Assembly (NCBI GenBank): GCA_037131775.1
Contig: JBAXQK010000002.1
Coordinates: 23,472-87,471, forward strand
Reading direction: 5' to 3'
Length of the DNA: 64,000 bases
Origin: Candidatus Uhrbacteria bacterium
GTDB lineage: Bacteria > Patescibacteriota > Patescibacteriia > UBA9934 > GWF2-40-263
Shown in pieces: positions 4,443-59,662 of the stretch. The position numbers and the translations under genes were made by a program. The notes under the pieces are model-generated. The model was not told where the DNA came from and did no database searches. It saw only the letters and a list, made by a program, of their open reading frames with translations. Each line of letters begins with the position of its first letter. Position 1 is the stretch's first letter.

Positions 4443-4529
4443 ATCGACTGAAGTATACGGGAAAACGGGGTTGGAGTCAACGCGGAGGGGGTTGAGAAAT
4501 TGGGAGAGAAGGGGTAGAGTGCCGGGGTT

Positions 4530-6302
4530 ATGCGTCCCCTGCTCGAAGCCACCCAACTCCGGAAGCTCTACGGCCGCCAGCATGTGCTCGACGGGGTGTC
4601 TTTTGTCGTGTCGGAGGGCGCGCACATCGGGCTGGTCGGTCGCAACGGAGCCGGAAAGACGACGATGCTGAAGATCCTGGCGGGCGACGAGGAGGCGGAC
4701 TCCGGGACGGTGAAGCTGATGCCGTGGACGCGGCTCGGAGTTTTGCGACAGCATGAGATTCTGCCGGACGACGTGGCGACGCTCGCGTATCTCGCGTCGA
4801 CGAGCAGCCGGCCGGAATGGGACTGCTCGAAGCTTGCGGCGCGGTTCGGGATCAAGGGGAAGGAGCTTTCGCTTCCGCCGGCGTCGCTGTCGGGCGGATA
4901 CCAGATGCGCGTGAAGATCGTCGCGATGCTGTTGCAGAACCCGACACTTCTTTTGCTCGACGAACCGATGAACTATCTCGACCTTCCCACGCTCCTCCTG
5001 CTGGAGTCCTTTTTGCGCGACTATCCCGGCTCGTTCCTGATGACGTCGCACGACCGCGAGGCGATGCAGAACATCTGCACCGAGACGTGGGAGATCGCGA
5101 ACGGCGCGCTCGCCGAGTTCCCGGGCGACCTCGAGACGTACCTCGACTGGAAGGACGAGCAGGCCGAGTACGCGCGCCGCACCAACAAGCGCCTCCGCCG
5201 CGAGATGTCCGACGCCCAGGCGTTCGCCGACCGCTTTCGCGCCAAGGCGTCGCTCGCCTCGCGCGCCCAAAGCAAGCTCCGCCACATCGCCAAGCTTCGC
5301 AACCAGCTGAAGACGGTTGGATCGAACCTCCCCACCGCCGCATTCCGCATCCCCTGCCCGGCCGTCACCTCCGGTCCTGCGGTGCGCTGCGTCGACCTGT
5401 CGATCGGCTACGAGGGATACGCGCCCGTCGCGACCGGGATCAACGTCGAGATCCAGCGCGGGGCGAAGGTGGCGATCGTCGGCGAGAACGGTCGCGGGAA
5501 ATCTACGTTCCTAAAGACGCTCGGCGGGATCCTCGACCCGATCGCCGGCGAGGTCAAGTGGTGGCACCGCGCGAACATCGGGTATTTCTCCCAGCTGTCC
5601 GAGGACACGCTGTCGCCCGACGCGACCGTTCTTCAGGCACTCACCCAGGCCGCCGGCGACGCGTCCGGCGAGCGCATCCTGGCCGCGGCCGGCGCGTTCC
5701 TGTTCCGCAATGACGACCTCGAGAAGACCTGCCGGGTCCTCTCCGGCGGCGAGCGCGCCCGCGTTCGCCTGGCCCGGCTCGTCCTCCGCGAGCACAGCGT
5801 CCTCATCCTCGACGAGCCCACCAACCATCTCGACGCCGAAACCGTCGAAGTCCTCGCCCGCGCCCTCAAGGAATATCCCGGAACGGTCATCCTCGTCTCC
5901 CACGCCCGCACGTTCATGAACGCCATCATCGACACGATCTTCGAGGTTCGCGACGGGATGGTTCGGCATTACATCGGAACATACGAGGAGTATGTGAGCG
6001 ATTTGACGGACAAGGCGGAGGAGACGACGCGGGCGTCCGATAGCGCGACGACCACCCCTGACCCCTCCTGCCTATCAGGAGGGGAAACGTCGAGGAAAGA
6101 GCAGGCCGTCGCGAATCGCGAGAACAAGCGCGTGCAGCTTCGCATCGAGGACAAGATGAAAAAACTCGACCGTGAGAAGAGCGACATCCTGGCGTTCTTC
6201 TTTGAGAACCCGACCGATTATTCACCGGAAAAGAACCGCCGCCTGGCCGAGCTTGAGGAAGAGCTCGCGACCGCCGAGCGCGAGTGGCTGTCACACGTAT
6301 GA
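4530..6302 (+). CDS. ABC-F family ATPase (two tandem ABC domains, no TM; Uup/EttA-like)
   Basis: Two Walker A motifs (GRNGAGKTT, GENGRGKST) and two signatures (LSGGYQMRV, LSGGERARV) are present. An inter-domain linker and a C-terminal coiled-coil tail follow. An RBS GGAGAGAAGGGG lies upstream. Confidence 0.85.
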   Translation: MRPLLEATQLRKLYGRQHVLDGVSFVVSEGAHIGLVGRNGAGKTTMLKILAGDEEADSGTVKLMPWTRLGVLRQHEILPDDVATLAYLASTSSRPEWDCSKLAARFGIKGKELSLPPASLSGGYQMRVKIVAMLLQNPTLLLLDEPMNYLDLPTLLLLESFLRDYPGSFLMTSHDREAMQNICTETWEIANGALAEFPGDLETYLDWKDEQAEYARRTNKRLRREMSDAQAFADRFRAKASLASRAQSKLRHIAKLRNQLKTVGSNLPTAAFRIPCPAVTSGPAVRCVDLSIGYEGYAPVATGINVEIQRGAKVAIVGENGRGKSTFLKTLGGILDPIAGEVKWWHRANIGYFSQLSEDTLSPDATVLQALTQAAGDASGERILAAAGAFLFRNDDLEKTCRVLSGGERARVRLARLVLREHSVLILDEPTNHLDAETVEVLARALKEYPGTVILVSHARTFMNAIIDTIFEVRDGMVRHYIGTYEEYVSDLTDKAEETTRASDSATTTPDPSCLSGGETSRKEQAVANRENKRVQLRIEDKMKKLDREKSDILAFFFENPTDYSPEKNRRLAELEEELATAEREWLSHV

Positions 6303-8091: not shown

Positions 8092-9466
8092 ATCTCGCCA
8101 CCGCCACGTCGAACCCGGCGCCCTTCTCATCCCCCGTGACGACTGCGAGGTGCGCGCCCTTCTTGACCCACTTGCGGGCCCGCAGCTCGGCGATCGCCTT
8201 CTCGGCGAACCCGACGGACGACTTCGACTTCAGCACGAATGCACGGACGCCCCAGCGGATGCCGACCTGCCGCGCCTCGGCTTCCGTGGCGCAGCCAAGG
8301 AACAGCGGAACCTCGGGCCGCGCGATCATGAGCCTCTCCGCCCAGGGGGCGAACGAATGCGACGCGACGATTCCCGAGATGAGATCTCCCGCCACGAACG
8401 CCTTCAGCGTCTCGCTGAGCGCGCCGACTCCGGACCCCGCGATCTCTTCGGCGGCCACGTCGTCGAACTTCGACGCCTCGGTCTCCGCGATGATCTTTGC
8501 CATCGTCGCCACCGCCTGCTTCGGATACTTCCCCGTCGCGGACTCGCCCGAGAGCATCACCGCGTCCGCGTGGTCAATCACCGCGTTCGCAACGTCGGAC
8601 ACCTCGGCGCGCGTCGGCCGCGGGTTGCGGGTCATCGAGTCGAGCATCTGCGTCGCGACGACGACGGGCTTTCCCGCAAGGCGGCACTTCTCAACGATCT
8701 CCTTCTGTCGCAGCGGAACGTCCTCGGCCGGCGTCTCAACCCCGAGATCGCCACGCGCGACCATCACCGCGTCCGTCGCGGCCAGAATCTCGTCGAAGTT
8801 CTCGAGCGCCTCGTGCTTCTCGATCTTGACGATGATCTTCGGGAGTGACTGAGTGATGGAGTGATTGAGTGATGGAGAAGCTGCCGCGATCAGACGACGA
8901 AGCGTCTTCACGTCCTTTGCGGACGTAACGAACGACAGTGCCATCCAATCCACTCCCTGCTGAACACCAAAAATAATATCCTCCTTGTCCTTCGCGGTCA
9001 GCGACGAGACGCGCAAGGTCGAATCCGGGAAGTTCATCCCCTTGTGCGACGTGACCGTCCCGCCGTTCACGACCTTGGCCGTCATGAACCCGGCCTTCCC
9101 GCTCACGTACGACACCTCGATGATCCCGTCGTCGATCATGACTCGGTCGCCCCTCTTCACGTCCTTGTACAGCGCCGAGTACGTCACCGGAAGCGTAACC
9201 GTCTCGCCGTTCCTCAGAACGACTCCGGCGTCCGGCACGACCCCGATCCGAATCTTCGGTCCCTGCAGGTCGCCGAGGATCGCGACCGTCTCGCCCGCCT
9301 TCTTCGCCGTCGCACGAATCGTCCGCACGAGCTTCGCGTGCCCGGCGTGCGTGCCGTGCGAAAAGTTAAGACGCGCGACGTTCATCCCCGACTTGATCAT
9401 CGCGGACAATGTCGCGGGAGTGTCGGACGCCGGGCCGATGGTGCAGACGATCTTTGTGCGCTTCAT
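8090..9466 (-). CDS. pyk: pyruvate kinase
   Basis: N-terminal [11 protein letters not shown]+/substrate motifs and [10 protein letters not shown] are present. The protein is 458 aa. It carries an in-frame repeat-encoded insertion [13 protein letters not shown]. Confidence 0.9.
8842..8875. repeat. family-A 8-mer tandem repeat (GGAGTGAT/ATCACTCC units) embedded in-frame in pyk
   Basis: The sequence ggagtgactgagtgatggagtgattgagtgatgg was seen. It is related to the copies at 11214, 48253 and 50759. Confidence 0.7.
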
Positions 9467-9467
9467 A

Positions 9468-10727
9468 CTATTGTGCCTTTAATTCTTCAAGCGCCACGCT
9501 CAGGTCGAATGCCTCCTCGCCGCGCGCAACTTTCAGCGAAACCGTGTCTCCGGGATTGTACTGGCTGATGACGGAGCCGAGCGTCTGATGGTCGGTAAGC
9601 TTCTGGCCGTTCACGGACAGGATCACGTCCCCCTCCCTGATACCCGCCTTTTCCGCCGGAGAACCCGGAGAGACGGCCGGCTCGGTGGTCGGATCGTTTC
9701 CATACGTGACGTAGACGCCATAGTCCACGGACAGGTTCTCGTCCGACGCCAGCTGCTTGTCGACCTCGAGATAGCGCACGCCGAGCCACGGGCGAACGAT
9801 GCGTCCGAACTTCCCGATGTCGTCCACGATCTTCTTGACGTCGTTGATCGGAATCGCGAACCCGATGGACTGGCCGTCGTAGCTGACGGCCGAGTTGATG
9901 CCGATGACCTCGCCGAGCAGGTCGATGAGCGGACCGCCCGAGTTGCCCGGGTTGATCGCCGCGTCGGTCTGGATCGCGCGGTCGATCACCTCGTCGGAGC
10001 CATAGTCGTCGCCGGCGGTCACGCTGCGGTTGATTCCGGAGATGACGCCCTTCGTGACGGTATTGCGATACTCGGAAAGGGTGTTGCCGATGGCGATCAC
10101 CGTCGAGCCGATGCGAATCTTGTCGGAATCGCCAAGCGTCGCCACCGGATATCCGTCTCCCGCCACGTCGAGCACGGCGATATCAAGGAACGCGTCCCGC
10201 GCCACGACCTTCGCGGGAAGCTCGACGCCATCGTTCGTCACGACCGTGTAGGTTGCGCCGTCATCGCTCACCACGTGCCGGTTCGTGACGATGTAGCCGT
10301 CGGACGACATGAAGAACCCGGATCCGCCGCCGATCTCGACGAGCTCGTTCGGATCCTGGTTTGGCGGGATGTCCGGAAGGGGCGGCGCGTTGAGCGGGTC
10401 GAAAAAACCGGAGTTTGACTGGTTCGCCTCATCGGCCCGCACCGCGCCCCACGGCTTCTTGATGATGACGCTGACCACCGACGGGGCCACGGTATCCACC
10501 ACGGAGATACTCGCGCTCTCCTCCTCGATCATCTGGACGATGCGCCGGTCGGTCACAACGGAAGCCTTTGGGGTTCCGGATATTCGCGCCACGATGTCCG
10601 ACCCGTTGATGGCGCCCGTCATAAGAACGGCCCCGACCGCGCCGGAAACCGAGCCGATCACGGCGGCAAGCGCGACGGCGACGACGAGGATCGTCTGATG
10701 AATTCCCGATGGTCGCTTTGCATCCAT
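9468..10727 (-). CDS. htrA: HtrA/DegP-family serine protease with C-terminal PDZ domain
   Basis: The catalytic triad context (VTNRHVV, DIAVLDV, GNSGGPL) is present. It has an N-terminal TM anchor and a C-terminal PDZ domain. Confidence 0.85.
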
Positions 10728-10729
10728 AG

Positions 10730-11206
10730 CTATTTTTTCTTTTTTCCCGCCTTCGGTGCTGCGATGAGCGAGCGCAGCAGCTCCTCGAACGTCTTCACGT
10801 CGTCAAACGACTGGTACACCGACGCGAACCGTATGTACGCCACCTTGTCGAACGCCTTCAGTTGCTTCATGAGAAGCTCGCCAATGTCCTTCGCCGTCAG
10901 TTCCCCGCGCCGCTTCTTCTGGATGTCGCGCTCGATCTTGTGCACGATCTGCCGCAAATCGGCCTCCGTGTACGGCCGCTTTTCCAACGACTTCTCCAAC
11001 CCCTTGATCAACTTGTCCCGCGAATAGCTCTCCCGCCTCCCGTCCCGCTTCACCACGGTCAGGTCCAGCAGTTCCATTTCCTCGAGCGTCGAAAACCGAA
11101 ACTCGCACTTCTCGCACTCGCGTCGACGCCGAATGTTCATCCCGTCGGTGGATAACCGGGAGTCGACGACCTTCGTGTCGGAATTGTTGCAGACGGGACA
11201 GCGCAT
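10730..11206 (-). CDS. nrdR: transcriptional repressor NrdR
   Basis: Starts MRCPVCNN with the zinc ribbon CPVC...CEKC, followed by an ATP-cone. The longer track ORF N-terminus is repeat read-through. Confidence 0.9.
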   Translation of the reverse strand: MRCPVCNNSDTKVVDSRLSTDGMNIRRRRECEKCEFRFSTLEEMELLDLTVVKRDGRRESYSRDKLIKGLEKSLEKRPYTEADLRQIVHKIERDIQKKRRGELTAKDIGELLMKQLKAFDKVAYIRFASVYQSFDDVKTFEELLRSLIAAPKAGKKKK

Positions 11207-11213
11207 AAAAAAA

Positions 11214-11290
11214 GTGGTGGAGTGATGGAGTGGTGGAGTGGTGGAGTTTAACACTCAATCACTCAATCACTTCATCACTCCATCACTATT
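11214..11290. repeat. family-A palindromic repeat element (two arms of 8-mer units around loop TTAACA)
   Basis: GGTGGAGTGATGGAGTGGTGGAGTGGTGGAGT ... CTCAATCACTCAATCACTTCATCACTCCATCACT was seen. It lies between the ftsZ stop and the nrdR start. Confidence 0.75.
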
Positions 11291-11295
11291 ATACA

Positions 11296-12648
11296 CTACA
11301 TCATCTTCTTCCGGATAAACGCCGGGATCTCGATCTCCTCTTCCTCGGTTTGCTGCTTCTGCTGCGCCATCGGCTGCGGCGGAGGCGGCATGTACTGGGA
11401 GCTCGTCGGGGCCTGGCGCGCCTGGAAGCTCGGGGCACCGCTCTGCTGGATCGGGCTGCTCATGGTCGGCAGCGCGTACGACGGCTGGACGTATGCCGGC
11501 TGTGGCTGCTGGACCGGCATCGGCGGCGGCATCATCGGGCGCATGGGAGCCGGCTGGGGCTGCGGCTGAGGATAGCTTACCGGGGCCTTCTGCTGACGAC
11601 GGGCCTGGTCGTCTTCGCGAACGCGGAGCGGGGCCGGGGTCCAGGTGTTCTGGGCCGGGATCTCGACCACTCCGGGGGCGGCCATGCGTCGGTCGCGCGA
11701 GTCAAATCCCGTGGCAACGACGGTGATGCGAACCTCCTCGCCCATGCTCTCGTCGATGTTGGCGCCGAAGATGACGCGCGCGTCCTCGTCGGCCGAGCCG
11801 GTGATGATCTTGGCGGCCTCCGCGACCTCGTGCATGCCGAGGTCCGTTCCGCCCGTGATCGTGAACAGGATCCCCTTGGCGCCGTCGATGGCGACCTCGA
11901 GGAGCGGTGAGGCGATCGCCTGCTTGGCGGCCTCCACGGCGCGGTTCTCGCCGGTGGCGCGGCCGATGCCCATGAGCGCGGAGCCGGAGTTCTGCATGAT
12001 GGCCTTCACGTCGGCGAAGTCGACGTTGATGAGTCCCGGGATGGTGATGAGCTCGGAGATTCCCTGCACGCCCTGGCGGAGCACGTCGTCCACCACCTTG
12101 AACGCGTCGAGGAGCGAGGTCTTCTTGTCGATGATCTGGAGCACGCGGTCGTTCGGGATGGTAATGATCGTGTCCACGTACTGGAGAAGCTGCTGATACC
12201 CTTCCTCGGCGATGCGTCGGCGCTGGGCGCCCTCGAACGAGAATGGCTTCGTGACCACGGCGATGGTAAGCGCGCCGATTTCCTTCGCGACCTTCGCCAC
12301 CTCCGGCGTTGCCCCCGTTCCGGTTCCGCCTCCGAGCCCGCACGTCACGAACACCATGTCCGCGCCGTTGAGCACCGTGCGAATCTCGTTGACGCTTTCC
12401 TCGGCCGCGTGTCGACCGACTTCCGGGTTCATGCCGGCGCCAAGGCCGCGCGTTACCGTCTTTCCGATCGGAATCTTGTTCGGCGCGAGATTCTGATGGA
12501 GCGCCTGCACGTCCGTATTCACGACGATAAACTCGACGCCCTTGATCTTGTCCGAAATCATGCGGTTCACCGCCGCGCCTCCGCCCCCACCAATGCCAAC
12601 CACCTTGATCTTGGCAAACGTCTCAATGTCGGGTTTCACTTCGGCCAT
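11296..12648 (-). CDS. ftsZ: cell division GTPase FtsZ with long Pro/Gln-rich C-terminal linker
   Basis: The tubulin motif GGGTGTG is present. The protein is 450 aa with a C-terminal conserved peptide. Confidence 0.95.
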
Positions 12649-12756: not shown

Positions 12757-12765
12757 GGAGAAAAT

Positions 12766-12884
12766 GGATACGAAGCAACGAATTTCCTACCAAACTACGA
12801 AACAACAAAACGCTACAAAATACAGTGAATTTGTAGCGTTTTAAAATTCTGTAGTTTGGTAGCGGATTCGTGGATTGGTATCCC
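12766..12884. repeat. family-B long imperfect palindrome (GGATACGAA...CTACCAAACTACGAAAC // GTAGTTTGGTAG...TTGGTATCC)
   Basis: About 118 bp in the ftsA-ftsZ intergenic region. Half-copies occur at 16651 and 59596. Confidence 0.7.
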
Positions 12885-12888
12885 TTCG

Positions 12889-14151
12889 TCACGGCTTCAA
12901 CGACTTCAGCATTTTCTTGAATCCGCTCGTCCACTTATCCACACCCTTGAACTTGGCGAGGATGTTCCCGAACCGCCCGCCGTCGCCCGCCGTCTTCACG
13001 TTTTGTCCCCAAAGCACCAGTCCGATCGCCGTGGACATGGCCGGGTCGTGGGCACGCTCGATGACGGAGGAAATCCCGATCGGCGTCCCGAGCGAAACGG
13101 GGAGACGCAGCACGTCCTTCGCGATCTCGAGGATCCCGCACAGCTTCGCGCAGCCGCCGGTCAGCACCATGCCTGCCGGAAGCATCCCGGAGCGCTCGAC
13201 CTTCTTCAGCTCGCGGTCGACCATCTGAAAAATTTCCTCGATCCTCGCCTCGGTAATGTCGGCGACGAATCGGCGTCCGACGGCCTCGGATTCCGTCGCG
13301 CCGAAGTCGGCAAGGTCAATCTCGTCCTTCTTCGAGACCTCGTCGGGACGGCAGGTCGCGCAGTGCAGCTTCACCTGCTCCGCGACCTCGAGCGACGTCC
13401 GAAGCCCGAGCGCGATGTCGTTCGTGACGTGCGCTCCGCCGACGGGAAGGACGGCCGTGTGCAGTACCTCGCCCTCCTCGTACACGGCGACGCTGGTGGT
13501 AGACGCCCCGATGTTCACGACGCAGACCCCGAGTTCCTTCTGGCGATTCGTCACGACCGCCTCGGCCGTCGCCAATACCGAGTACACGAGGTCCTCGATG
13601 TCGAGCCCGGTCCGGTACACGCACTTGGTCAGATTCTTGATCTGCGACGAAAGTCCCTGGATGATCAGCGCGTCCACTTCCAGACGGATCCCGTTCATGC
13701 CGATCGCGTCCTTGATGCCGCGCTGGCCGTCGACGATGAACGTCTTCGGGATCACGTGGAGAATCTCGTAGTTGGTCGGCGTCGCGACCGTCCTTGCCGC
13801 CTCGATGGCGCGCTCCACGTCCTCCTCGCGGATCTCGCCGTCCGAGCGCGACACGCCCACGACGCCGCGGCTTTCCTGCGAGATGATATGGCTTCCCGAG
13901 ATGGCGACCCAGGCTGACGCGAGCGGGAGGCCGGTCAGCCGTTCTGCCTGTTCGAGCGCCTTGGATACCGAAGACACCGCGTCCTCGATCCCGGTGATCG
14001 TCCCGCGGTTCACGCCCATGCTCGGCACCTCGACGGCCCCGATGACATGCACCTGTGATTTTCCGTCGGCCGCGGACGGAACGCCCTTTCCAACCGCGAC
14101 GCGGATGGCGTGCGACCCAATGTCGAGACCAACGTAGATATCTTCGGCCAT
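12889..14151 (-). CDS. ftsA: cell division protein FtsA
   Basis: The true start is MAEDIYVGLDIGS at 14151. The protein has an actin-like fold and a C-terminal amphipathic helix. Confidence 0.9.
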   Translation of the reverse strand: MAEDIYVGLDIGSHAIRVAVGKGVPSAADGKSQVHVIGAVEVPSMGVNRGTITGIEDAVSSVSKALEQAERLTGLPLASAWVAISGSHIISQESRGVVGVSRSDGEIREEDVERAIEAARTVATPTNYEILHVIPKTFIVDGQRGIKDAIGMNGIRLEVDALIIQGLSSQIKNLTKCVYRTGLDIEDLVYSVLATAEAVVTNRQKELGVCVVNIGASTTSVAVYEEGEVLHTAVLPVGGAHVTNDIALGLRTSLEVAEQVKLHCATCRPDEVSKKDEIDLADFGATESEAVGRRFVADITEARIEEIFQMVDRELKKVERSGMLPAGMVLTGGCAKLCGILEIAKDVLRLPVSLGTPIGISSVIERAHDPAMSTAIGLVLWGQNVKTAGDGGRFGNILAKFKGVDKWTSGFKKMLKSLKP

Positions 14152-30620: not shown

Positions 30621-30653
30621 TTGATTATAACACAAAAGGGATCGAAGGGGTCA
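30621..30653 (-). promoter_or_regulatory. strong extended -10 promoter (TGACCC-18-TGtTATAAT) giving a near-leaderless transcript
   Basis: On the minus strand the sequence ctgaccccttcgatcccttttgtgttataatcaaaccaatATG was seen. The -10 ends about 10 nt before the start codon at 30614. Confidence 0.5.
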
Positions 30654-30717
30654 GAGGGATCGAGGGGATCCGTTCCCCATTTTCCCTTGAACCCTTCGAA
30701 CCCTTCGAAACCCCCGA

Positions 30718-30963: not shown

Positions 30964-31023
30964 ACTATTTTCACCTTCCTTTCATTGATTAAGATACCGG
31001 GAGGATAACAGGGGGGAGATAAA

Positions 31024-31141
31024 GAGTCAAGAATCAAGAATGCAAGATGCAAGGAAGACTTAAAATTCAAAGGTAAAAATTGAAATTTAAGATTTTACCC
31101 TTGATTCTTCCTTGTTTCTTGCCCTTCTTGTATCTTGAGTC
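31024..31141 (-). promoter_or_regulatory. long imperfect hairpin of inverted TTCTTG-type units with an AT-rich loop in the hisS-rpsU spacer
   Basis: Arm GAGTCAAGAATCAAGAATGCAAGATGCAAGGAAGA faces arm TCTTCCTTGTTTCTTGCCCTTCTTGTATCTTGAGTC. It could be a processing or attenuation structure. Confidence 0.3.
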
Positions 31142-46388: not shown

Positions 46389-46474
46389 TGGTGGGCGAGG
46401 AGGGACTCGAACCCTCAAGCCCTTGCGGACACGGGATTTTGAGTCCCGCGCGTATACCATTCCGCCACTCGCCC
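46389..46474 (-). tRNA. tRNA-Leu (anticodon CAA), type II with long variable arm
   Basis: The reverse complement is GGGCGAGTGGCGGAATGGTATACGCGCGGGACTCAAAATCCCGTGTCCGCAAGGGCTTGAGGGTTCGAGTCCCTCCTCGCCCACCA. Confidence 0.85.
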
Positions 46475-46542
46475 ATTGGTCGCTTGCGGGAGAATGGTAG
46501 CAGAATGCCAGTGGAATGCCAAGTGCGACGATCTTCTTTTTA

Positions 46543-46571
46543 TTGCCAAAATCCTCCCAATATGGCATAAT
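46543..46571 (+). promoter_or_regulatory. sigma70-like promoter (TTGCCA-17-CATAAT), near-leaderless
   Basis: The -10 ends about 10 nt upstream of the ATG at 46582. Confidence 0.4.
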
Positions 46572-46581
46572 TCCGGCAACT

Positions 46582-47046
46582 ATGACTTTGACAACGCACG
46601 CGACGCTCGGGGCGGTCATTGGCCACGCGGTTGGAAATCCGGTGGTTGCCTTCGTCCTTGGGTTCATTTCCCACTTCATGATCGACATGATCCCGCACGG
46701 CGACACCGGAATCTCGGACAACTTTCGCGTCCACAAGACGCGCCAAACCCAAGCCGTGGCCTACGTGGCCGTCGACGCCATCGTCGCGCTCCTCTTCGTT
46801 CTCCTCCTCGCCAACACCCGCGACATCGACCACGTCCGCACGTTTACCTGGGGCATTATCGGCAGCGTCCTCCCCGATTTGATCGTCGGCGTCTACGAAG
46901 TCACCAAGACCCCGCTGCTGCGATGGTTCAACACGATGCATTTCTACTTCCATGATTTCTTCGTAAAGAGGCGCGGAGAGGTTCCGCTGTATTATGCCTT
47001 GTTGGCGCAGGTGGTGTTGATTGCTTATTTGCAGACGAAGTTGTAA
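46582..47046 (+). CDS. membrane-bound metal-dependent hydrolase-like protein (YdjM/DUF457-like)
   Basis: Starts MTLTTHATLGAVIGHAV...HFMIDMIPHGD. It has 4 TM segments and conserved His/Asp residues. Confidence 0.55.
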   Translation: MTLTTHATLGAVIGHAVGNPVVAFVLGFISHFMIDMIPHGDTGISDNFRVHKTRQTQAVAYVAVDAIVALLFVLLLANTRDIDHVRTFTWGIIGSVLPDLIVGVYEVTKTPLLRWFNTMHFYFHDFFVKRRGEVPLYYALLAQVVLIAYLQTKL

Positions 47047-47051
47047 TCGCG

Positions 47052-47080
47052 AAAAAAAGAACTCCGTAAGGAGTTTTTTT
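47052..47080. terminator. bidirectional intrinsic terminator
   Basis: AAAAAAAGAACTCCGTAAGGAGTTTTTTT. Confidence 0.6.
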
Positions 47081-47089
47081 GTGGCTTGC

Positions 47090-47660
47090 CGCCACACCGC
47101 GTCACTTTCTTTCAGCCGTGAAAGAAAGTAACCAAAGAAACCGTCCGCCCGGTCTCCATGGCGGGCCGGGACGGAAAAGGCGGCCTCGGCTGCGGAACTC
47201 GCTAGTCCGCCAAGTAAAACAAAAAGAGCGGAACTTCGCTCAGACAATCCTCGCCCGTCCTGATGGACCCGGCCGCCTTTTCCGTCCCGTCTCCATCCGT
47301 CATTCCGACAGGGCGGGTTATCCGGGCGGTGTTGCGATGGTTATTTTTGGCTGAGGCCGTAATAACTTTCAACGTTTCCCCTCCTCATAGGGAGGAGGGG
47401 TCAGGGGTGGCCGTCGCGCCATAAACAAAAAACTTCCATCCGGTCGCCGCCCTGCCGGAGCGACCCAGCCAGGACGTGAAAAATTGGCGGGTGCATCAGC
47501 ACGGGCGAGGATTGTCTGAGCGTGCGAGCCCGTAGGCGAGAAGCGAGTTCCGCAGCCGAGCCAATTTTTCGCGTTCTGGCGTAGGAGCGGATGGCCGGGC
47601 GGAAGGCTCTCTTTGCCTACTTTCTCTGTCCGCCCCACAGAGAAAGTAGGTCGGGTGCAG
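47090..47660. other. approximately 570-bp noncoding region dense in nested inverted repeats and hairpins (candidate structured RNA, or a MITE-like repeat pile-up)
   Basis: Terminal hairpins are CACTTTCTTTCA-GCCG-TGAAAGAAAGT (47107-47135) and CCTACTTTCTCTGT-CCGCCC-CACAGAGAAAGTAGG (47617-47651). Internal pairs include GGACGGAAAAGGCGGCC with GGCCGCCTTTTCCGTCC, CTCGGCTGCGGAACTCGC with GCGAGTTCCGCAGCCGAG, and CAGACAATCCTCGCCCGT with ACGGGCGAGGATTGTCTG. It also contains one family-C hairpin. Confidence 0.5.
47373..47418 (+). repeat. family-C GC-hairpin repeat (copy 1)
   Basis: GTTTCCCCTCCTCATAGGGAGGAGGGGTCAGGGGTGGCCGTCGCG, with a 9-bp perfect stem CCCCTCCTC/GAGGAGGGG. Confidence 0.75.
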
Positions 47661-47687
47661 GGCGAAGCGCCTGCGGAAAAAACATCC

Positions 47688-48731
47688 CTAAACCTTTTCG
47701 ATTATCGAAACAATCCCCCGAGCACACCGCTCCCAGGTAAACTCCCCTGCCCGCGCCTTTGCCGCGGCAATCATCTCCCCGAGCGCCTCCGGCATCATCA
47801 CGCACTGGGCGATCGCAAACGCCATCTGCTCGGCATCGTCGGGATCGACGTACATCACCGCGTCGCCCCCAACCTCCGGCAATGCGCCGCGGTTCGACGT
47901 GACGACCGGAACCCCGGCCGACATCGCCTCTAGGACCGGCAGGCCGAACCCTTCCTCCCACGACGGAAAGAAAAAGCACGACGCCTGCGCGTACAGGTTC
48001 GCCTTCTCGTCCTCGGTCACGTATCCGACCTGCCGCACGACATTTCCTCCCGCGACCGACCGCCACGCATCGTTCGTCTGCGCGATCGCCTCGAGGATTG
48101 GCTCGGCGTTCCAACCGATGCCGCCGGCGATTACGAATCGCGTCGTCGCGGCGCGATCCTTGTGCATGCGCAGGAACGCGTCGAACGCGGCGAGCGCGTT
48201 GACGAGGTTCTTGCGCGGCTCGAGGGTGCCGACGAAGAGGATCGTGTCGGAGGTGAGTAGTGAGTGATTGGTAGTTTGTAGTTTGGAGACACCCGGATAT
48301 ACCACGACCACCTTGTCGACGACATCCGGAAACACTCGTCCAATCTGTCGCTTCGTCGCCTCGGAGATCGCGATGACCGCGTCCGCCCGTCGCAGCGACC
48401 TAGGGACGAGGAACTTCGCGGCGAAGTCGAGCTTCGTCGCCGGGAACCATTCGGGGTGCTCGTAGATGGTCAGGTCGTGAACCGTCACGACGGTCTTTCC
48501 CGTCCAGCACAGTGGCGACTGATTGGCCGGGCAGAACAGGACGTCCGTCATCTTCATCGTCGCGACGAGCGCCAGGTTCACGTGGCGCGTCAGAAACGGG
48601 ACGCGGCGCTTTGGGTTCCAAACGAAGAGATCCGTTCCAAGAACGGATCGCATGGCCGTGACGACGGAGCGCGTGTACGTGCCGATTCCCGCGCCGTCCC
48701 GCATCGTGGTGCCGTCGACCGCGATCCTCAT
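47688..48731 (-). CDS. glycosyltransferase family 4 (GT-B fold)
   Basis: The start was reassigned to MRIAVDGTT (ATG 48731). The C-terminal motif is EGFGLPVLEAMSAGVPVV. A repeat-encoded in-frame insert KLQTTNHSLLTSDT sits at the inter-domain linker. Confidence 0.8.
   Translation of the reverse strand: MRIAVDGTTMRDGAGIGTYTRSVVTAMRSVLGTDLFVWNPKRRVPFLTRHVNLALVATMKMTDVLFCPANQSPLCWTGKTVVTVHDLTIYEHPEWFPATKLDFAAKFLVPRSLRRADAVIAISEATKRQIGRVFPDVVDKVVVVYPGVSKLQTTNHSLLTSDTILFVGTLEPRKNLVNALAAFDAFLRMHKDRAATTRFVIAGGIGWNAEPILEAIAQTNDAWRSVAGGNVVRQVGYVTEDEKANLYAQASCFFFPSWEEGFGLPVLEAMSAGVPVVTSNRGALPEVGGDAVMYVDPDDAEQMAFAIAQCVMMPEALGEMIAAAKARAGEFTWERCARGIVSIIEKV
48253..48287. repeat. composite family-A/family-B repeat fragment embedded in-frame in the GT4 gene
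   Basis: GTGAGTAGTGAGTGATTGG followed by TAGTTTGTAGTTTGGAG. Confidence 0.6.
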
Positions 48732-49192
48732 AGCGCGATCGCCTTGATCGTCCCGGTCGTCACGAGAACGACGAGCACGCTCGCGACCACGTGGCCGATG
48801 ATAATCGCCGGGATCGCATAACGAGCCTTGATGTCGAAAAGGACCGCGAGCGCCGTCCCCGTCCAGATGCCGGCTCCCGGAAGCGGAAGCGCGCCGAGGA
48901 TCGCGAGGGCGAACGCGCCGAACCGCTGGTACGTGGCCATGTGCTTCTGCTCCAGCGCGCGCAGCTTCTTGTTCAGGAACGCATGAAGGCGAGGCATGTG
49001 CTTTTCCGCCCAGGCGAGGAGCGCCGGCATCCCCCACCAAAGAAACGGGATCGGAACGAGGTTCCCGAACAACGCGAGCGACCACGCCTTGAACGCCGAA
49101 AAATGAAACAGGGTGATCGCGATCGGGATGGAAGCGCGCAGTTCCGTCACGGGGAGCGCGGAAAGAATCAGAATGACAATTTCTTGTTTCAT
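48728..49192 (-). CDS. small integral membrane protein (4 TM, uncharacterised; small multidrug-export-like family?)
   Basis: 154 aa, hydrophobic. The start overlaps the GT4 start by 4 nt. Confidence 0.5.
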   Translation of the reverse strand: MKQEIVILILSALPVTELRASIPIAITLFHFSAFKAWSLALFGNLVPIPFLWWGMPALLAWAEKHMPRLHAFLNKKLRALEQKHMATYQRFGAFALAILGALPLPGAGIWTGTALAVLFDIKARYAIPAIIIGHVVASVLVVLVTTGTIKAIAL

Positions 49193-50181
49193 AGGGTTGA
49201 GGTCTTTTCGTCCGGCCATTCGAAAACCTTGTAGGTCCAGGCAGACAGCGCCTTTACGTCCTGAAATCGCCCCGTGATCGTCTCAGAGCCAAGGACGACG
49301 ACGACAATCTCATGCGCGTCCTTTTCCGAAACGAGCGACCCGAGGCAGTACCCCGCTTCTGGCAAGAATCCCGTCTTGCCTCCAACGACCTTGTACGGCG
49401 CCTGGTTCAGGAAGCTGTTCAGCAGCTCGTCGGTCGTGTCGATCGAATACACTCTGCCGGATGATCCGACGAACGTCGTCACGGGTTGCTCGGTTGCCTC
49501 GCGGATAACGCCTACCTTCATGGCCGCGTCAAGGAGTCGCACGAGATCGGACGGGATCGAACGGTTGTCCGCGGAAAGACCCGTGGGATCCAGGAACGTC
49601 GTTGCTCGCATGCCAAGCTCGGCAGCGGTTTCATTCATCTTAGCCACAAAATTACCCTCGGACAGCCCCGACAGCCGCACGAGCGCCGCCGTCGCGGAGT
49701 TATCGGATCCGACGAGGCTCGCGTGAAGCAGGTTGTCGACCGTAACGGTGTCGCCGACGGAAACGTGCTGAACCCCGCCCGAGCGCACGTCGGATGCCTG
49801 AAGGGCAGTCGGCGAGGTGAGGTCCGGGTTTCCCTTGAGAAAGACGAACGCCGTCATCAGCTTGGTGATGCTTCCAATGGAGCGAGGTTCCTCGCCGTTC
49901 TTCTCGTACAGGACGGACCCGGTCGCACGGTCGACCACGATGGCGCTTACCGCGGACGTGACGACGCCGACGCTGTTCGGATCGATTTTTTTCGGGGCTC
50001 GGGATGCGTCGGGAGCCGCGGGAAGACCGGCGCGCAAAAGTGCCATCGCCTCGAACGCACCTGGCTGGCGAAGCTCGGACGACGGCAGCGTGGCGTAGCG
50101 CTCAACCATGCCCGCGTCGTATGGGTAAACCTGAAGCAAGGTCGTCGCGAGCAGCAGTTGTGCCATCAGTCGAAGGATCAC
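49189..50181 (-). CDS. dacC: D-alanyl-D-alanine carboxypeptidase (peptidase S11, PBP5/6-like)
   Basis: The SxxK (SITK), SxN (SDN) and KTG (GGKTGF) motifs are present, plus an N-terminal signal. Confidence 0.85.
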   Translation of the reverse strand: MILRLMAQLLLATTLLQVYPYDAGMVERYATLPSSELRQPGAFEAMALLRAGLPAAPDASRAPKKIDPNSVGVVTSAVSAIVVDRATGSVLYEKNGEEPRSIGSITKLMTAFVFLKGNPDLTSPTALQASDVRSGGVQHVSVGDTVTVDNLLHASLVGSDNSATAALVRLSGLSEGNFVAKMNETAAELGMRATTFLDPTGLSADNRSIPSDLVRLLDAAMKVGVIREATEQPVTTFVGSSGRVYSIDTTDELLNSFLNQAPYKVVGGKTGFLPEAGYCLGSLVSEKDAHEIVVVVLGSETITGRFQDVKALSAWTYKVFEWPDEKTSTL

Positions 50182-50750
50182 AGGGCGGAGTCATTGAGCG
50201 AGGAGGTCATCGAGTCGCTGAGCGAGTCGACGAGCTCCGTCATCTTCTTGTCGTCGTGCAGGTCGAGATAGTCGGGAAGGTCCGCGATCGAGTGGATCCC
50301 AAGGTGCCGCACGAAGTCCGCGGACACGGTAAACACCGGCTGCAGACGCTCGATGTCGTCGACCTCGTCCACGAGTCCTCGCATAGAGAGGTTACGCAGG
50401 ATGAGCGAGCAGTTCACGCCGCGAATCTGCTCGATCTCCGGCTTCGTGATCGGCCCGCGGTATGCGATGATGGTCAGCGTCTCAAGCGACGGCCGCGACA
50501 GTTCCCCGCTCACCTCCTCCTTCAAAAGCGCCGCGACGACCGCGGACTCGGACGGGTTCGTAACGAACTGCAGCTTCCCCCCGTGCTCGACCACGTGGAT
50601 GCCGGACGCGTCGACGTTGAATCGCACCTTCACGTCCGCGATCGCCTCGAGAAGCACCTCGTCGGAAACGTTCAGCGACTTTTTCAAAACCGAAATCGCG
50701 ACCGGCTTTGCCGACGCGAATAGGATCGATTCGAGGGAGGTCGTGAGCAT
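50178..50750 (-). CDS. scpB: segregation and condensation protein B
   Basis: Tandem winged helices are present (LETLTIIAYRGPITKPEIEQIRGV). Confidence 0.9.
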   Translation of the reverse strand: MLTTSLESILFASAKPVAISVLKKSLNVSDEVLLEAIADVKVRFNVDASGIHVVEHGGKLQFVTNPSESAVVAALLKEEVSGELSRPSLETLTIIAYRGPITKPEIEQIRGVNCSLILRNLSMRGLVDEVDDIERLQPVFTVSADFVRHLGIHSIADLPDYLDLHDDKKMTELVDSLSDSMTSSLNDSAL

Positions 50751-50758
50751 AGGGGAAA

Positions 50759-50828
50759 GTGGTGGAGTGACGGAGTGATGGAGTACCTAACCACTCCACG
50801 ACTTCATCACTTCATCACTCAATCACTC
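50759..50828. repeat. family-A palindromic repeat element
   Basis: GGTGGAGTGACGGAGTGATGGAGT-ACCTAA-CCACTCCACGACTTCATCACTTCATCACTCAATCACTC was seen. It encodes the last two codons of scpA. Confidence 0.7.
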
Positions 50829-51514
50829 TTCGTAATCAGTATATCGTGAAACGACCCTCCTTGGACAGCCTTCACCACGCGCTGCTTCATGAGCTCGAGG
50901 AGCGCGAGGAAACTGACGACGACCTCGACCTTCGACGCGCCGCTCGCGACCATCTCGTGGAACAGGACCTTCGATCGGTCGACCATCGCGGCCTGGAGCT
51001 GCTTCATGCGCTCCTGGATGGACACGACGCGCTCGATCGACGACTGTCGCAGCGCGAAGAACGGCTCGAGGCGCTTCTGCACGGCCTGGAACAGCTCGCG
51101 GAGAATCGGCGGCGTCACGTTCTTCGGCGGAAGGAACTGACGCACCTTCGCGATCGACGCCTTCTCCCGCGCGAACATGTCCTTCCCCGCCCCGAACATC
51201 TCCTCGATCATCGCCGACGCGTGCACGAAACGCTTGTACATCCGCAGCTGATCGGCAAGCTTCGCCCCGTCCTCCTCCGCGTCGAGGTTCAGCTGCGGAA
51301 GGATGGCGTGCGACTTGATGAGCAGCAACTTCGTCGCGACGACGAGGAAATCCGCCAGCTCTTCAGCGGGAACCTCGTGCTCGTTCACGTGCCTCAGATA
51401 GTCCTCGGTGACCTTCGCAAGAGAAACCTCCGTAATCGGAAGTTTCTCTTGCTCGATCAGGTCGAGAAGAAGTTGGAGAGGGCCGGAGTATTGGTCGAGG
51501 GTGACTTGGAACAT
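50819..51514 (-). CDS. scpA: segregation and condensation protein A
   Basis: Starts MFQVTLDQYSGPLQLLLDLIEQEKLPITEVSLAKVTEDYL. The start was reassigned. Confidence 0.85.
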   Translation of the reverse strand: MFQVTLDQYSGPLQLLLDLIEQEKLPITEVSLAKVTEDYLRHVNEHEVPAEELADFLVVATKLLLIKSHAILPQLNLDAEEDGAKLADQLRMYKRFVHASAMIEEMFGAGKDMFAREKASIAKVRQFLPPKNVTPPILRELFQAVQKRLEPFFALRQSSIERVVSIQERMKQLQAAMVDRSKVLFHEMVASGASKVEVVVSFLALLELMKQRVVKAVQGGSFHDILITKSD

Positions 51515-53005: not shown

Positions 53006-53020
53006 AGAATTTTTCTTTAC

Positions 53021-53067
53021 ACGTTTCCCCTCCTCATAGGGAGGAGGGGTCAGGGGTGGTCGTCGCG
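53021..53067 (+). repeat. family-C GC-hairpin repeat (copy 2), in the aspS 5' leader
   Basis: Nearly identical to copy 1; TGGTCGTCGCG variant. Confidence 0.75.
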
Positions 53068-56246: not shown

Positions 56247-56292
56247 CGTTCCCCCTCCTCATAGGGAGGAGGGGTCAGGGGTGGTCGTCGCG
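56247..56292 (+). repeat. family-C GC-hairpin repeat (copy 3), between ruvX stop and recO start
   Basis: CCCCCTCCTCATAGGGAGGAGGGGTCAGGGGTGGTCGTCGCG. Confidence 0.75.
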
Positions 56293-56299
56293 ACGGTCT

Positions 56300-57489: not shown

Positions 57490-57495
57490 AGATTT

Positions 57496-58128
57496 CTAAT
57501 TTCCCATTTCTAATTTATCAACGATCCTCTCCTGGACCTCCTCGACCGTGCCGACCCCGTCGACGCGGACCAGCACGCCCTTCTCCTCGAACCTCCCGAG
57601 CATCGGCGTGGTGTCGTTGTCGTAAATGTCGAGCCGGCGGCCGATGGCGGCCTCGGTGTCGTCGTCGCGCCGAACGAACGCTCCGCCGCACGCGCACGCG
57701 TCGCCTTCCTTTGCCCCGTCCTTCGTCGACGCGACCGCGCCGCAGCTCGAGCAAGTCAAGCGTCCGCCGAGACGATTCAACGATTCCTCGCGCGGAACCT
57801 CGATCACGATCACGTGCGTCGGCGCGTCGAACGTAAACGCCGCATACTGCTTCAAGTTGCGCGGATACCCGTCGAGGACATATCCGTTGATCGCGTCAGG
57901 ACGGGACAGACGCGCCTGGAGAACCTCCGCGGCGACTTCGTCGGACACCAGGTTCCCGGCCTTCAGAATCCCGTCGACCTTTAGCCCGACATCCGATCCC
58001 GCCGCGACTTCGTCACGCAGCAGCTGCCCCATCGCAAGTGCCGGAACGTTCAGCTTCTTCGACAAGATCTGCGCCTGCGTCCCTTTTCCGCTGCCCTGCG
58101 GGCCGAGAAGGATGATTTTATAGGTCAT
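57496..58128 (-). CDS. adk: adenylate kinase (with zinc-binding lid, CSSC...CACG)
   Basis: P-loop GPQGSGKGTQ and a Cys4 lid are present. Confidence 0.9.
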   Translation of the reverse strand: MTYKIILLGPQGSGKGTQAQILSKKLNVPALAMGQLLRDEVAAGSDVGLKVDGILKAGNLVSDEVAAEVLQARLSRPDAINGYVLDGYPRNLKQYAAFTFDAPTHVIVIEVPREESLNRLGGRLTCSSCGAVASTKDGAKEGDACACGGAFVRRDDDTEAAIGRRLDIYDNDTTPMLGRFEEKGVLVRVDGVGTVEEVQERIVDKLEMGN

Positions 58129-58133
58129 ATGTT

Positions 58134-58688
58134 CTAAGTTTTTTGGGTGGTGGAATTTTTGGGTGGATTGAATCTGCCCAGCACAATGTAGTAAAAAATA
58201 CGTGCAAAAATCCTAAACAACAATATCCAGATAAGTGGAAGACCGAGAAATGCCAAACTAATATTCAACCAACGTGGTTGTGTAATGATTGATAAGTTGT
58301 AAAGTCTGTGCTTATCAAAACATTCTGAATCTGTTAACTCACTTGATAAGAGACAGTCTGTCATTAAACGCCTGGATTCTGTTTCATCTCTGAAAGAAAA
58401 GTTACAATGCGTAAGAATTGATGTATCGTCTACATGAAGTTGCCCATTATACAGCCTAGAGAATATCTCATCAGAAGAGATTTTAGCATCTACGAGTGTG
58501 GATGATTTTCCAGAACCGCAACGAATGGTTGAATCATCGTAATTAATGGCAAGTCCGTTTTGATGAATAATAAATAAATAATAGCTTGCCGCAATCACAA
58601 ACAATAACACACAAACACTAACAACCTTCAGCAGGCGAAACCACACGCGTGTGTTCAGTTCTTGAATGGAGTGAATTTTATTACTCAT
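58134..58688 (-). CDS. hypothetical membrane protein (2 TM, Cys-containing extracytoplasmic loop) in the AT-rich island
   Basis: About 33% GC versus about 60% surroundings. It is translationally coupled to the upstream ORF by an ATGA overlap. Confidence 0.5.
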   Translation of the reverse strand: MSNKIHSIQELNTRVWFRLLKVVSVCVLLFVIAASYYLFIIHQNGLAINYDDSTIRCGSGKSSTLVDAKISSDEIFSRLYNGQLHVDDTSILTHCNFSFRDETESRRLMTDCLLSSELTDSECFDKHRLYNLSIITQPRWLNISLAFLGLPLIWILLFRIFARIFYYIVLGRFNPPKNSTTQKT

Positions 58689-59026
58689 AGAGATGTCGCT
58701 TTATTTGCGGCAAATTCATCCACTCCCGTTTTAATTTCGATTAGTTCTTGATATCGAATGGGCGACGGTATGTAAAAATCAAGAATGGAACTATTCGTCA
58801 GTATTAACTCTATCACCTCACGATCGGTCAGATTTTCAAAAAGAATTACCCGTAGCGCAACTTTAATATCAGCCTTTTGCCAAGGAAGCTCGTCTTCAAA
58901 AAAATATAGTCCAGGACGCCTATTCTCAAGATACAAAGCAAAATCACCTACAACTTCCCACGCGGTTTTAGAATCTAGATTTTTTTTAAGATCGTCTGCG
59001 AGAGATTTTTGAAAACTCATACGCAA
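58685..59026 (-). CDS. hypothetical protein (113 aa) in the AT-rich island
   Basis: AT-rich codon usage. Tightly packed in the operon. Confidence 0.5.
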   Translation of the reverse strand: MRMSFQKSLADDLKKNLDSKTAWEVVGDFALYLENRRPGLYFFEDELPWQKADIKVALRVILFENLTDREVIELILTNSSILDFYIPSPIRYQELIEIKTGVDEFAANKATSL

Positions 59027-59029
59027 TAA

Positions 59030-59320
59030 TCACCACAGCTGGATACAAATACCCCTTGCTGCGGAGATACAATAAACACTTCTAAAGGAGTGGCGAATTT
59101 TAATTGTTTTATGCATCATCTCGTGAATGTTTGTATTTGTCCATGGGAAAATTCCAAAGTTGATCAGTAATTGTAAGGTTTTTTGAGTATCTATTGAATA
59201 CTCTTCTGCCTTATGTCCCAAAGCCTCTCTTATCCTTATGGCATCATTTTGTATTCTCAACGCTGGAAGATCGAAAGACTCTCCACGTTCATATTTTTTT
59301 AATTGGGCGAGTTGAAACAT
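59030..59320 (-). CDS. hypothetical protein (96 aa) in the AT-rich island
   Basis: AT-rich. It overlaps the upstream ORF by 22 nt in another frame, so the two may be one frameshifted gene. Confidence 0.4.
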   Translation of the reverse strand: MFQLAQLKKYERGESFDLPALRIQNDAIRIREALGHKAEEYSIDTQKTLQLLINFGIFPWTNTNIHEMMHKTIKIRHSFRSVYCISAARGICIQLW

Positions 59321-59556
59321 ATTCCGGAATTCAGGCTCCTCAAATGGTGTATTCCGAACGGGAACAGCATAACAATTTGGACCATTAGATTATTTTCAAT
59401 TTCAGAATTCTTAATTTTAAAGAGAAGATCACACTCTGGTTCTAAATATTCTTGATCTTTAACTTCAAAAGAATACTTTGTGGAATTAATTTTATTGTAT
59501 GTAGAAACAAACAAATTGCCAATTTCCCTTAATTCATCACGGCTTGGTTCTGACAT
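59299..59556 (-). CDS. hypothetical protein (85 aa) in the AT-rich island
   Basis: AT-rich. First gene of the island. Confidence 0.35.
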   Translation of the reverse strand: MSEPSRDELREIGNLFVSTYNKINSTKYSFEVKDQEYLEPECDLLFKIKNSEIENNLMVQIVMLFPFGIHHLRSLNSGICFNSPN

Positions 59557-59595
59557 ATTTCCCGCTCATTATACCAGAAGACGAGGACTCTCGCC

Positions 59596-59657
59596 CCCGT
59601 CTTTGTAGCAATCCGTAGTATTTGTAGTTTAGCGGCCAATTCGTAGTTTCGTATCCC
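59596..59657. repeat. family-B half-copy at the secY-proximal boundary of the AT-rich island
   Basis: TTTGTAGCAATCCGTAGTATTTGTAGTTTAGCGGCCAATTCGTAGTTTCGTATCC. Confidence 0.6.
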
Positions 59658-59662
59658 TGTCT

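Follow-up and report, generated by a model that had tools for sequence, protein, structure and literature searches.

Tandem heptamers are known from cyanobacteria as short tandemly repeated repetitive (STRR) sequences, and phase-variable simple sequence repeats in glycosyltransferase genes make up the contingency loci of Haemophilus, Neisseria (in lipooligosaccharide genes) and Campylobacter. The Rickettsia palindromic elements (RPEs), which are 100-150 nt long, were reportedly described by Ogata et al. in 2000 as selfish palindromes that lie in frame in protein-coding genes. RPEs are mentioned in PMC10969869 and PMC1779305. Long simple sequence repeats (LSSRs) with units of 5-11 nt, especially heptanucleotides, were the subject of Mrazek et al. 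2007, insofar as that study is represented in PMC4679880. The TAACTGA repeats of Beggiatoaceae and Cyanobacteria are mostly intergenic and lie near gene ends; the unit has stops in three frames of one orientation, and copies within open reading frames (ORFs) are reversed and usually fall outside domains or at the periphery of proteins (PMC4679880). Repetitive extragenic palindromic (REP) elements and REPINs, short hairpin-forming repeats of intergenic DNA, owe their mobility to RAYT transposases (PMC3116915), and PMC2884548 deals with bacterial genomes in which conserved flanks enclose small variable segments. Here we consider a short AT-rich tract that lies in frame in the interdomain linker of a GT4 glycosyltransferase, encoded in a 64-kb stretch of Candidatus Uhrbacteria DNA; this whole stretch is what we call the window, and it was compared with about 135 kb of related Uhrbacteria loci (L001 and so on). 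Our literature searches found no description of its repeats in the Candidate Phyla Radiation (CPR). We lean towards the view that a heptamer array, inherited and prone to slippage but by now degenerate, encodes a flexible hinge here.

The host protein is a 100% match to a Candidatus Uhrbacteria database protein over its 347 residues. Pfam finds Glycos_transf_1 and Glyco_transf_4 in it, the nearest solved structure is 7qsg, a D-inositol 3-phosphate glycosyltransferase, and the AlphaFold2 (AF2) model adopts the GT-B fold with a mean pLDDT of 93 and a pTM of 0.90. In this model residues 149-161 form the coil between the last strand of the N-terminal domain and the first strand of the C-terminal domain, and the 10-residue block of the hinge, with a pLDDT of 62, is the least confident block. 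On the + strand of the window the segment reads GTGAGTAGTGAGTGATTGG at 48253-48271 and then TAGTTTGTAGTTTGGAG at 48272-48288; the - strand reads ...VVVYPGVSKLQTTNHSLLTSDTILFVGTLEPRKN... and gives the hinge peptide SKLQTTNHSLLTS immediately ahead of ILFVGTLEPRKN. A preliminary description of this DNA had placed the segment in frame in the linker, directly before this conserved part of the enzyme, and the coordinates, the reading and the Pfam domains all agree with it.

The coding strand of the array reads AAACTAC AAACTAC CAATCAC TCACTAC TCACC, and the antisense reads GTGAGTA GTGAGTG ATTGGTA GTTTGTA GTTTGGA. In the 7-nt register the two unit types differ at positions 3-4 only; there are only two perfect copies of each, and the array is degenerate. 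Autocorrelation is highest at a lag of 7 (0.66, p=0.0018) and only 0.42 at a lag of 8, Tandem Repeats Finder (TRF) reports GTAGTTT x2.1, and the units stand head to tail within the 5-11-nt range of heptanucleotide simple repeats with a periodicity above chance. The GC content is 0.40 in the tract versus 0.63 in the gene, due in part to amino-acid composition, and GC at third codon positions (GC3) is 0.46 in the linker versus 0.82 in the gene. Stop codons occur in all three frames of the + strand of the tract, while all three frames of the - strand are open, and the same asymmetry holds for (GTAGTTT)n and (GAGTGATG)n generally. Because the antisense is closed in every frame and the coding strand is open, a tract within a gene can persist in this orientation only; the same asymmetry explains why copies within ORFs take this orientation, and why forward copies lie at gene ends, where they overlap stop codons.

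Several other classes of element were considered for the tract itself. It has no inverted partner and folds at just -6.2 and -11.1 kcal/mol (z +0.8 on both strands), and a structural role as RNA or DNA was dropped, there being no fold on either strand. No terminal inverted repeats or target-site duplication of a miniature inverted-repeat transposable element are visible at 48240-48300, and the window's own tract is not a palindrome with near-identical dispersed copies and presence/absence of the RPE or REP kind. Runs of about four or more perfect units, as in contingency loci, are not found in it, two being the most. An intron-like reading (GTGAGT...TAG) was rejected, the gene lying on the opposite strand and the tract being translated in frame within a full-length, confidently folded protein, and so was programmed frameshifting, as there is no slippery X XXY YYZ site.

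The evidence that carries our reading comes from the DNA of the GT4 linkers of twelve lineages. In the protein alignment the stretch from VVYPG to SDTILFVGT is hypervariable in length and sequence, with flanks about 90% identical. Heptamer-periodic tracts lie at the same codons in L007, L010 and L128, whose proteins are 57-79% identical. L007 (76-79% amino-acid identity) has a linker of equal length, with 29 of 42 bases as in the window and a lag-7 autocorrelation of 0.59 (p=0.046); L010 (57-64% identity) carries (CCTACAA)4 AAACGAC (CCACAAC)4-5, with a lag-7 value of 0.89; and L128 reads CCACAAC CCACAGG CCACAAA CCACCCA, periodic by eye. The number of units in these orthologous tracts ranges from 4 to about 10. 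The MAFFT alignment gives the tracts of L007, L010 and the window a common register, [AAMCTAC]n - AAACGAC/CAATCAC - [YCACNAC]n - YCACC, and the peptide pattern Q-x-T-x-H-x3-T-x-D is common to the proteins P0001, P0008, P0017 and P0018. In antisense both the window and L010 read (GTGRGTN)n and then (GTAGKTT)n, so that the order in which the preliminary description saw an A-like half followed by a B-like half is orthologous. Since the same two-part tract stands at the same codons in L007, L010 and L128, the juxtaposition appears to be inherited; judged from these sequences, it is probably ancestral and not a composite mobile element. At 13 residues the window linker has the basal length of its clade, so nothing has been added to it.

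Wider searches brought in few linkers of use. A metagenome scan with a subfamily-specific DNA pattern gave 35 loci, of which only four were new orthologues (61-65% identical), and none of these has a periodic linker. The matches listed in a scan of genome contigs with the GT4 alignment were relatives at no more than 42% identity that share generic GT4 motifs, and are uninformative on the linker. L010 has two further repeats close by: a second in-frame periodic insertion in the N-terminal domain of its GT4 (5090-5135), where about three 10-nt GCGCAGAGGN units encode EVRRGRRGAQR, and an (AAGAACC)n/(GGTTCTT)n hairpin with periodic arms directly after the GT4 stop codon (6111-6167).

The preliminary description had taken the segment for a second in-frame copy, composed of two repeat families that occur elsewhere in the window. 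The window does hold many AT-rich arrays of 7-9-nt units (Table 1), none of which is recognised by Rfam, which found only tRNAs. Family A, (GGAGTGAT)n with GAGTGATN units, occurs as inverted pairs at two intergenic sites and as a single arm in pyruvate kinase, where a first in-frame array, implied by that wording, does exist; TRF gives a period of 8 for all A arrays, and the pyruvate kinase array has a lag-8 value of 0.74. Family B, (TTCGTAG-N)n with GTAG/CTAC units and GGATAC ends, occurs as one inverted pair and two single arms. The inverted pairs form long hairpins, with z from -3.1 to -9.5 on the - strand and from -4.6 to -10.8 on the + strand. The A hairpins are about 7 kcal/mol stabler as + strand RNA (-52.1 and -38.7 versus -44.8 and -31.6 kcal/mol at 11200-11300 and 50750-50835), and in RNA transcribed antisense to the flanking genes their mismatched positions become G-U pairs.

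Table 1. Positions of the GT4 hinge array, its host gene and the other repeats of the window
Feature	Position	Strand	Basis or value
GT4 (GT-B fold) glycosyltransferase gene, intact, 347 aa	47688..48731	-	Pfam, AF2, database match
Degenerate five-unit heptanucleotide array encoding hinge SKLQTTNHSLLTS	48251..48291	-	autocorrelation, orthologue alignment
Pyruvate kinase loop: family-A array of CATCACTC type, in frame, period 8, 14 residues encoded	8842..8877	-	
Family-A hairpin, 8-nt periodic arms, between ftsZ and nrdR, then T-run on - strand	11208..11292	.	z -8.5 and -9.6
Family-A hairpin between scpA and scpB	50755..50832	.	
Family-B hairpin between ftsA and ftsZ, GGATAC ends	12760..12885	.	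z -9.5 and -10.8
Single-arm family-B array overlapping stop codon	16651..16690	.	
Single-arm family-B array directly after secY stop codon	59599..59656 (widest 59595-59660)	.	
Arrays of other unit types	30638-30709; 31020-31140; 57492-57516		
Copies of palindrome P	53019..53067; 47372-47418; 56248-56299; in frame 6040-6093	+ (first copy)	

The proposed resemblance to the two families holds in part. The 9-mers of the GT4 tract recur at 10 places, nine of them within A arrays (pyruvate kinase, ftsZ-nrdR and scpA-scpB) or B arrays (ftsA-ftsZ and after secY), and the 10-mers TTTGTAGTTT and TGTAGTTTGG are common to the tract and B arrays. Like family A the tract is strand-pure (C-free or G-free): C is absent from the + strand of its 35 nt, and the C-free run of 41 nt around it is the second longest in the 64 kb, after a family-A hairpin arm at 11205. 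However, the period is 7 and not 8, one GAGTGATTG word is all that corresponds to the three or more GAGTGATN units of family A, and where family B has GTAG units 8-10 nt apart and a GGATAC terminus, the tract lacks GGATAC and its two GTAGTTT units are spaced at 7 nt. A match of at least 10 nt was found in 4.8% of dinucleotide shuffles for family A, in 2.8% for family B and in 0.08% for both, and none of 6,316 control windows matched both families. Because the segment had been chosen by the earlier reader from roughly 100 AT-rich spots, we regard the family resemblance as real but only marginally beyond chance once this selection is allowed for; it is suggestive rather than compelling. Of the checks that had been proposed, the search for co-occurrence, which covered the window and the related Uhrbacteria loci, turned up no further A+B junction, and the comparison of GT4 orthologues showed a linker shared by some, not most, of them.

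In sister genomes the hinge is occupied by a different repeat. P is a 46-nt palindromic dispersed repeat, ACGTTT-CCCCTCCTCATAGGGAGGAGGGG-TCAGGGGTGGTCGTCGCG, unrelated to A and B, of which the window has four copies. It stands in frame in the GT4 linker (VSPPHREEGSGVVVA) of L001-L006 and L008, among them the closest relatives at GT4, L001-3 (89% identical in amino acids and 92% in nucleotides), and the preliminary description was right to see a repeat-prone site here. These copies are 96-98% identical to the intergenic P of the window and have a constant orientation and a constant right junction between GCG and ACGTCCGAC. The blastn alignment of the window with L001 breaks exactly at 48255-48291, with flanks 92% identical. 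The further suggestion that one repeat targets the other survives in an altered form only: in the closest relatives it is P, a different element, that occupies precisely this site. L001 retains, on the left side of P, TCCAACCAA, which resembles the first array unit and weakly favours an insertion of P into the array. In L005 and L006 a further 30-nt insertion, TCCGCCTTCGCTACGGCTTCGGGGGAGAAC, lies between the palindrome and the 3' tail (10481-10510 in L005), lengthening the hinge to 30 residues.

A neighbor-joining tree built with the linker masked puts L007 at the base of the clade and makes the window sister to L001, while L010 and L128, both in the heptamer state, form a second subclade. Most simply, the heptamer state is ancestral and P is the later arrival. 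Over 46389-49200, identity to L004 and L005 is 80-84% around the GT4 and Sm_multidrug_ex genes versus 88-91% over the rest of the syntenic 20 kb, a drop that may be a sign of recombination.

We picture the history of the hinge as follows. The in-frame heptamer array would encode a disordered hinge of about 13 residues between the N- and C-terminal Rossmann-like domains, and would already have been present in the common ancestor of the heptamer-state lineages. It would change through slipped-strand mispairing, with only the frame-preserving outcomes surviving. Its 'A-like' half, GTGAGTN, may be an AT-drifted form of the GTGGGTN units of the orthologues, and its 'B-like' half, GTAGTTT, would correspond to their GTAGGTT units; the likeness to the intergenic arrays would then reflect a shared class of strand-asymmetric short-period repeats and not a recent insertion. 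The protein presumably uses the tract merely as a flexible linker rich in Thr, Gln, Ser and His. In the sister genomes the hinge may have served as a landing site for the REP-like P because it would be the sole AT-rich, insertion-tolerant spot in the gene.

Some observations weigh against this history. The heptamer state was read at the DNA level in four lineages only, the linkers of L009, L098, L108 and L110 are non-periodic, and some of the likeness between lineages could be convergent, C/A-rich linkers of the Pro/Thr/Gln type being of low complexity. The sharing of 10-mers with both families of its own genome's arrays exceeds that of shuffles (0.08%), an excess that hints at ongoing exchange with those arrays. 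Moreover, the window, as sister to L001, is nested among P-state genomes, so an ancestral heptamer tract calls for two or three independent insertions of P at an identical junction, for recombination, or for ancestral polymorphism. In the first case P would have entered the very same junction on two or three occasions, in the second the P allele would have spread through recombination, and in the third both alleles would have been kept as a polymorphism.

Repeats are also replaced outright at other loci. In the pyruvate kinase loop before the KIEKHEA strand (8838-8902) the window has (CATCACTC)4, and L126, the closest relative there, has (GAGGGTCG)3(AAGGTTCG) at 10565-10632, with flanks 91.5% and 97% identical; the array is common to the 70-89% identical orthologues P0123, P0125 and P0135, while P0132, P0133 and P0137 have a short loop without it. 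The copy of P in the ABC-F type ATPase gene (4518-6302, + strand) is in frame (SATTTPDPSCLSGGETS) near the C-terminal part, and the orthologues of L126 and L127 are shorter at this site, with a different sequence and no P. The whole stop-to-start spacers between ftsA and ftsZ (12765-12890) and between ftsZ and nrdR (11208-11285) differ from those of L126 (6715-6750 and 8224-8259): in the window stand hairpins with periodic arms, 126 and 78 nt long, and L126 has unrelated GC-rich hairpins of 36 nt, between flanks 95-97% identical. Because a T-run follows both versions, they look like swapped terminator hairpins. Between scpA and scpB we found four states, namely the (GAGTGATN)n hairpin of the window, a (GAGTCGTT)n hairpin in L001 (7892-7981), an almost empty spacer in L004 (7979-7982) and an unrelated hairpin in L005 (7801-7914). 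The scpA stop codon TGA lies within the first GAGTGA unit in the window and in L001.

Arrays can be old as well as labile, for the more distant L004/L127 genome still has B arrays at orthologous sites. The ftsA-ftsZ hairpin that is replaced in L126 is kept in L127, the array overlapping a stop codon has an orthologue in L127 at 2879-2937, and the array after secY has one in L004 at 1772-1834. At the adk-map junction, an (ATTTCTA)n array (57492-57516) is conserved in L004 (2485-2511), and the L001 spacer is 128 nt of different sequence. Between the array after secY and adk lies a 1.4-kb island of 40-45% GC (58134-59556) with four small ORFs on the - strand (184, 113, 96 and 85 aa) that have no Pfam match; L004 has the array without the island. 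Pfam identified no transposase in these four ORFs or in the two flanking GT4, which was the only search made for one.

These replacements bear directly on the other ways in which the tract might have arisen. The one originally put forward, a recent in-frame insertion of a composite mobile element in which a family-A arm is joined to a family-B arm, would account for the 9-10-mers specifically common to the tract and the A and B arrays, for the atypical GC3 and the C-free run like that of A arms, and for the abrupt break in the alignment with the closest relative, and arrays of these families are indeed gained, lost and swapped at other sites. We nevertheless hold it to be very unlikely, since no second A+B junction was found in the window or the related loci and no copy of either half at up to 3 mismatches in the window, the period is 7 and not 8 with no GGATAC end, inverted partner or hairpin, the linker stands at its basal 13 residues, and L007, L010 and L128 have a homologous two-part tract; on the same grounds the idea of a single modular mobile element made up of A and B is not supported. 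Another version, in which the hinge is a fixed slot overwritten from other arrays by template switching or ectopic conversion, its halves being patches from A and B, gains from the swaps between 91-97% identical flanks at pyruvate kinase, ftsA-ftsZ, ftsZ-nrdR, scpA-scpB and the ABC-F linker, and from the 10-mers that the tract has in common with its own genome's arrays. Yet L010 and L007 have the two-part order and register in common although their own arrays differ, the shared words are only 9-10 nt long and no donor array contains the tract, and we find this version quite improbable. Active, site-directed cassette exchange, in which strand-asymmetric 7-9-nt arrays, periodic-arm hairpins and P are swapped through fixed slots and the GT4 tract is an attachment site for P, strikes us as unlikely too, though less so than these two; the slots might then be intergenic sites that resemble terminators, together with disordered loops in housekeeping enzymes, and P might have hit one and the same junction of the GT4 tract in two or three independent events, each time in the same orientation.

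The hinge could also be an ordinary fast-evolving, low-complexity linker whose periodicity and array likeness are coincidences of coding for Thr, Gln, Asn, His and Ser, as its hypervariable length and sequence among orthologues would suggest; each half matches its family in 3-5% of shuffles, the joint match is marginal after selection, and part of the low GC follows from amino-acid composition. Against this stand the lag-7 periodicity, which reaches significance in three lineages and can be seen by eye in L128, the four plus five near-perfect heptamers of L010, which go beyond amino-acid composition, and a GC3 of 0.46 against 0.82, so that we consider coincidence rather doubtful. Least probable of all, to our minds, is a phase-variation (contingency) locus in which the glycosyltransferase would be turned off and on by frameshifts that arise when slippage adds or removes one 7-nt unit. 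A 7-nt unit does not divide into whole codons, glycosyltransferases are generally known as the classic phase-variable class, L010 has runs of 4-5 perfect units, and a shift would truncate the protein downstream only, the coding strand being open in all frames. However, two perfect copies per unit type in the window are not enough to make slippage frequent, the frame is intact in every orthologue read, the protein clusters are single-sequence with no length variants, and the tract lies mid-gene and not near the 5' end.

Taken alone, a tandem repeat of non-triplet units that has stayed in frame as a hinge across divergent CPR bacteria is a minor curiosity. The wider pattern is that in these reduced genomes the disordered loops of conserved enzymes (GT4, pyruvate kinase and ABC-F) and the hairpins between essential genes hold a few families of short repeats, which turn over completely between genomes with flanks 91-97% identical. 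Such loci are useful as strain markers and call for caution in annotation and alignment, and they offer a tractable setting in which to study the tolerance of selfish or slippage-generated DNA inside Patescibacteria proteins.

Each of the known systems resembles part of what we see. The outright replacement of short stretches between flanks 91-97% identical recalls the small variable segments of PMC2884548; unlike those segments, as outlined there, the Uhrbacteria swaps involve specific repeat families and also occur inside essential genes. With contingency loci the tract has in common a non-triplet repeat unit within a glycosyltransferase gene, but its perfect units are too few, the sequences compared show no length polymorphism, and it lies in a mid-gene hinge. 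The short intergenic hairpins of Uhrbacteria are like REPs and REPINs, and the GTAG tetranucleotides of the B-type units and the GT4 tract are what we take to be a further likeness; in contrast to those elements, the hairpin arms are internally periodic, and a Pfam scan, of six ORFs only, revealed no RAYT or transposase. P, like the RPEs, is a dispersed palindrome that occurs between genes and also, in frame, within conserved proteins (the GT4 hinge and ABC-F), with presence and absence between relatives, although at about 46 nt it differs in length, and the window's GT4 tract differs from the RPEs in being neither palindromic nor dispersed and in showing no insertion relative to the basal linker length. 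Finally, the tract has units of about 7 nt and follows the same orientation rule inside an ORF as the LSSR, STRR and TAACTGA repeats; it departs from them in that the array is degenerate, lies mid-protein in a domain hinge and is orthologous across divergent lineages, and in that this genome has many unit families and not a single heptamer, many of these families occurring as inverted pairs that form long hairpins. The closest known kinds are therefore the heptanucleotide LSSR, STRR and TAACTGA repeats for the tract, and the Rickettsia palindromic elements for the insertions of P.

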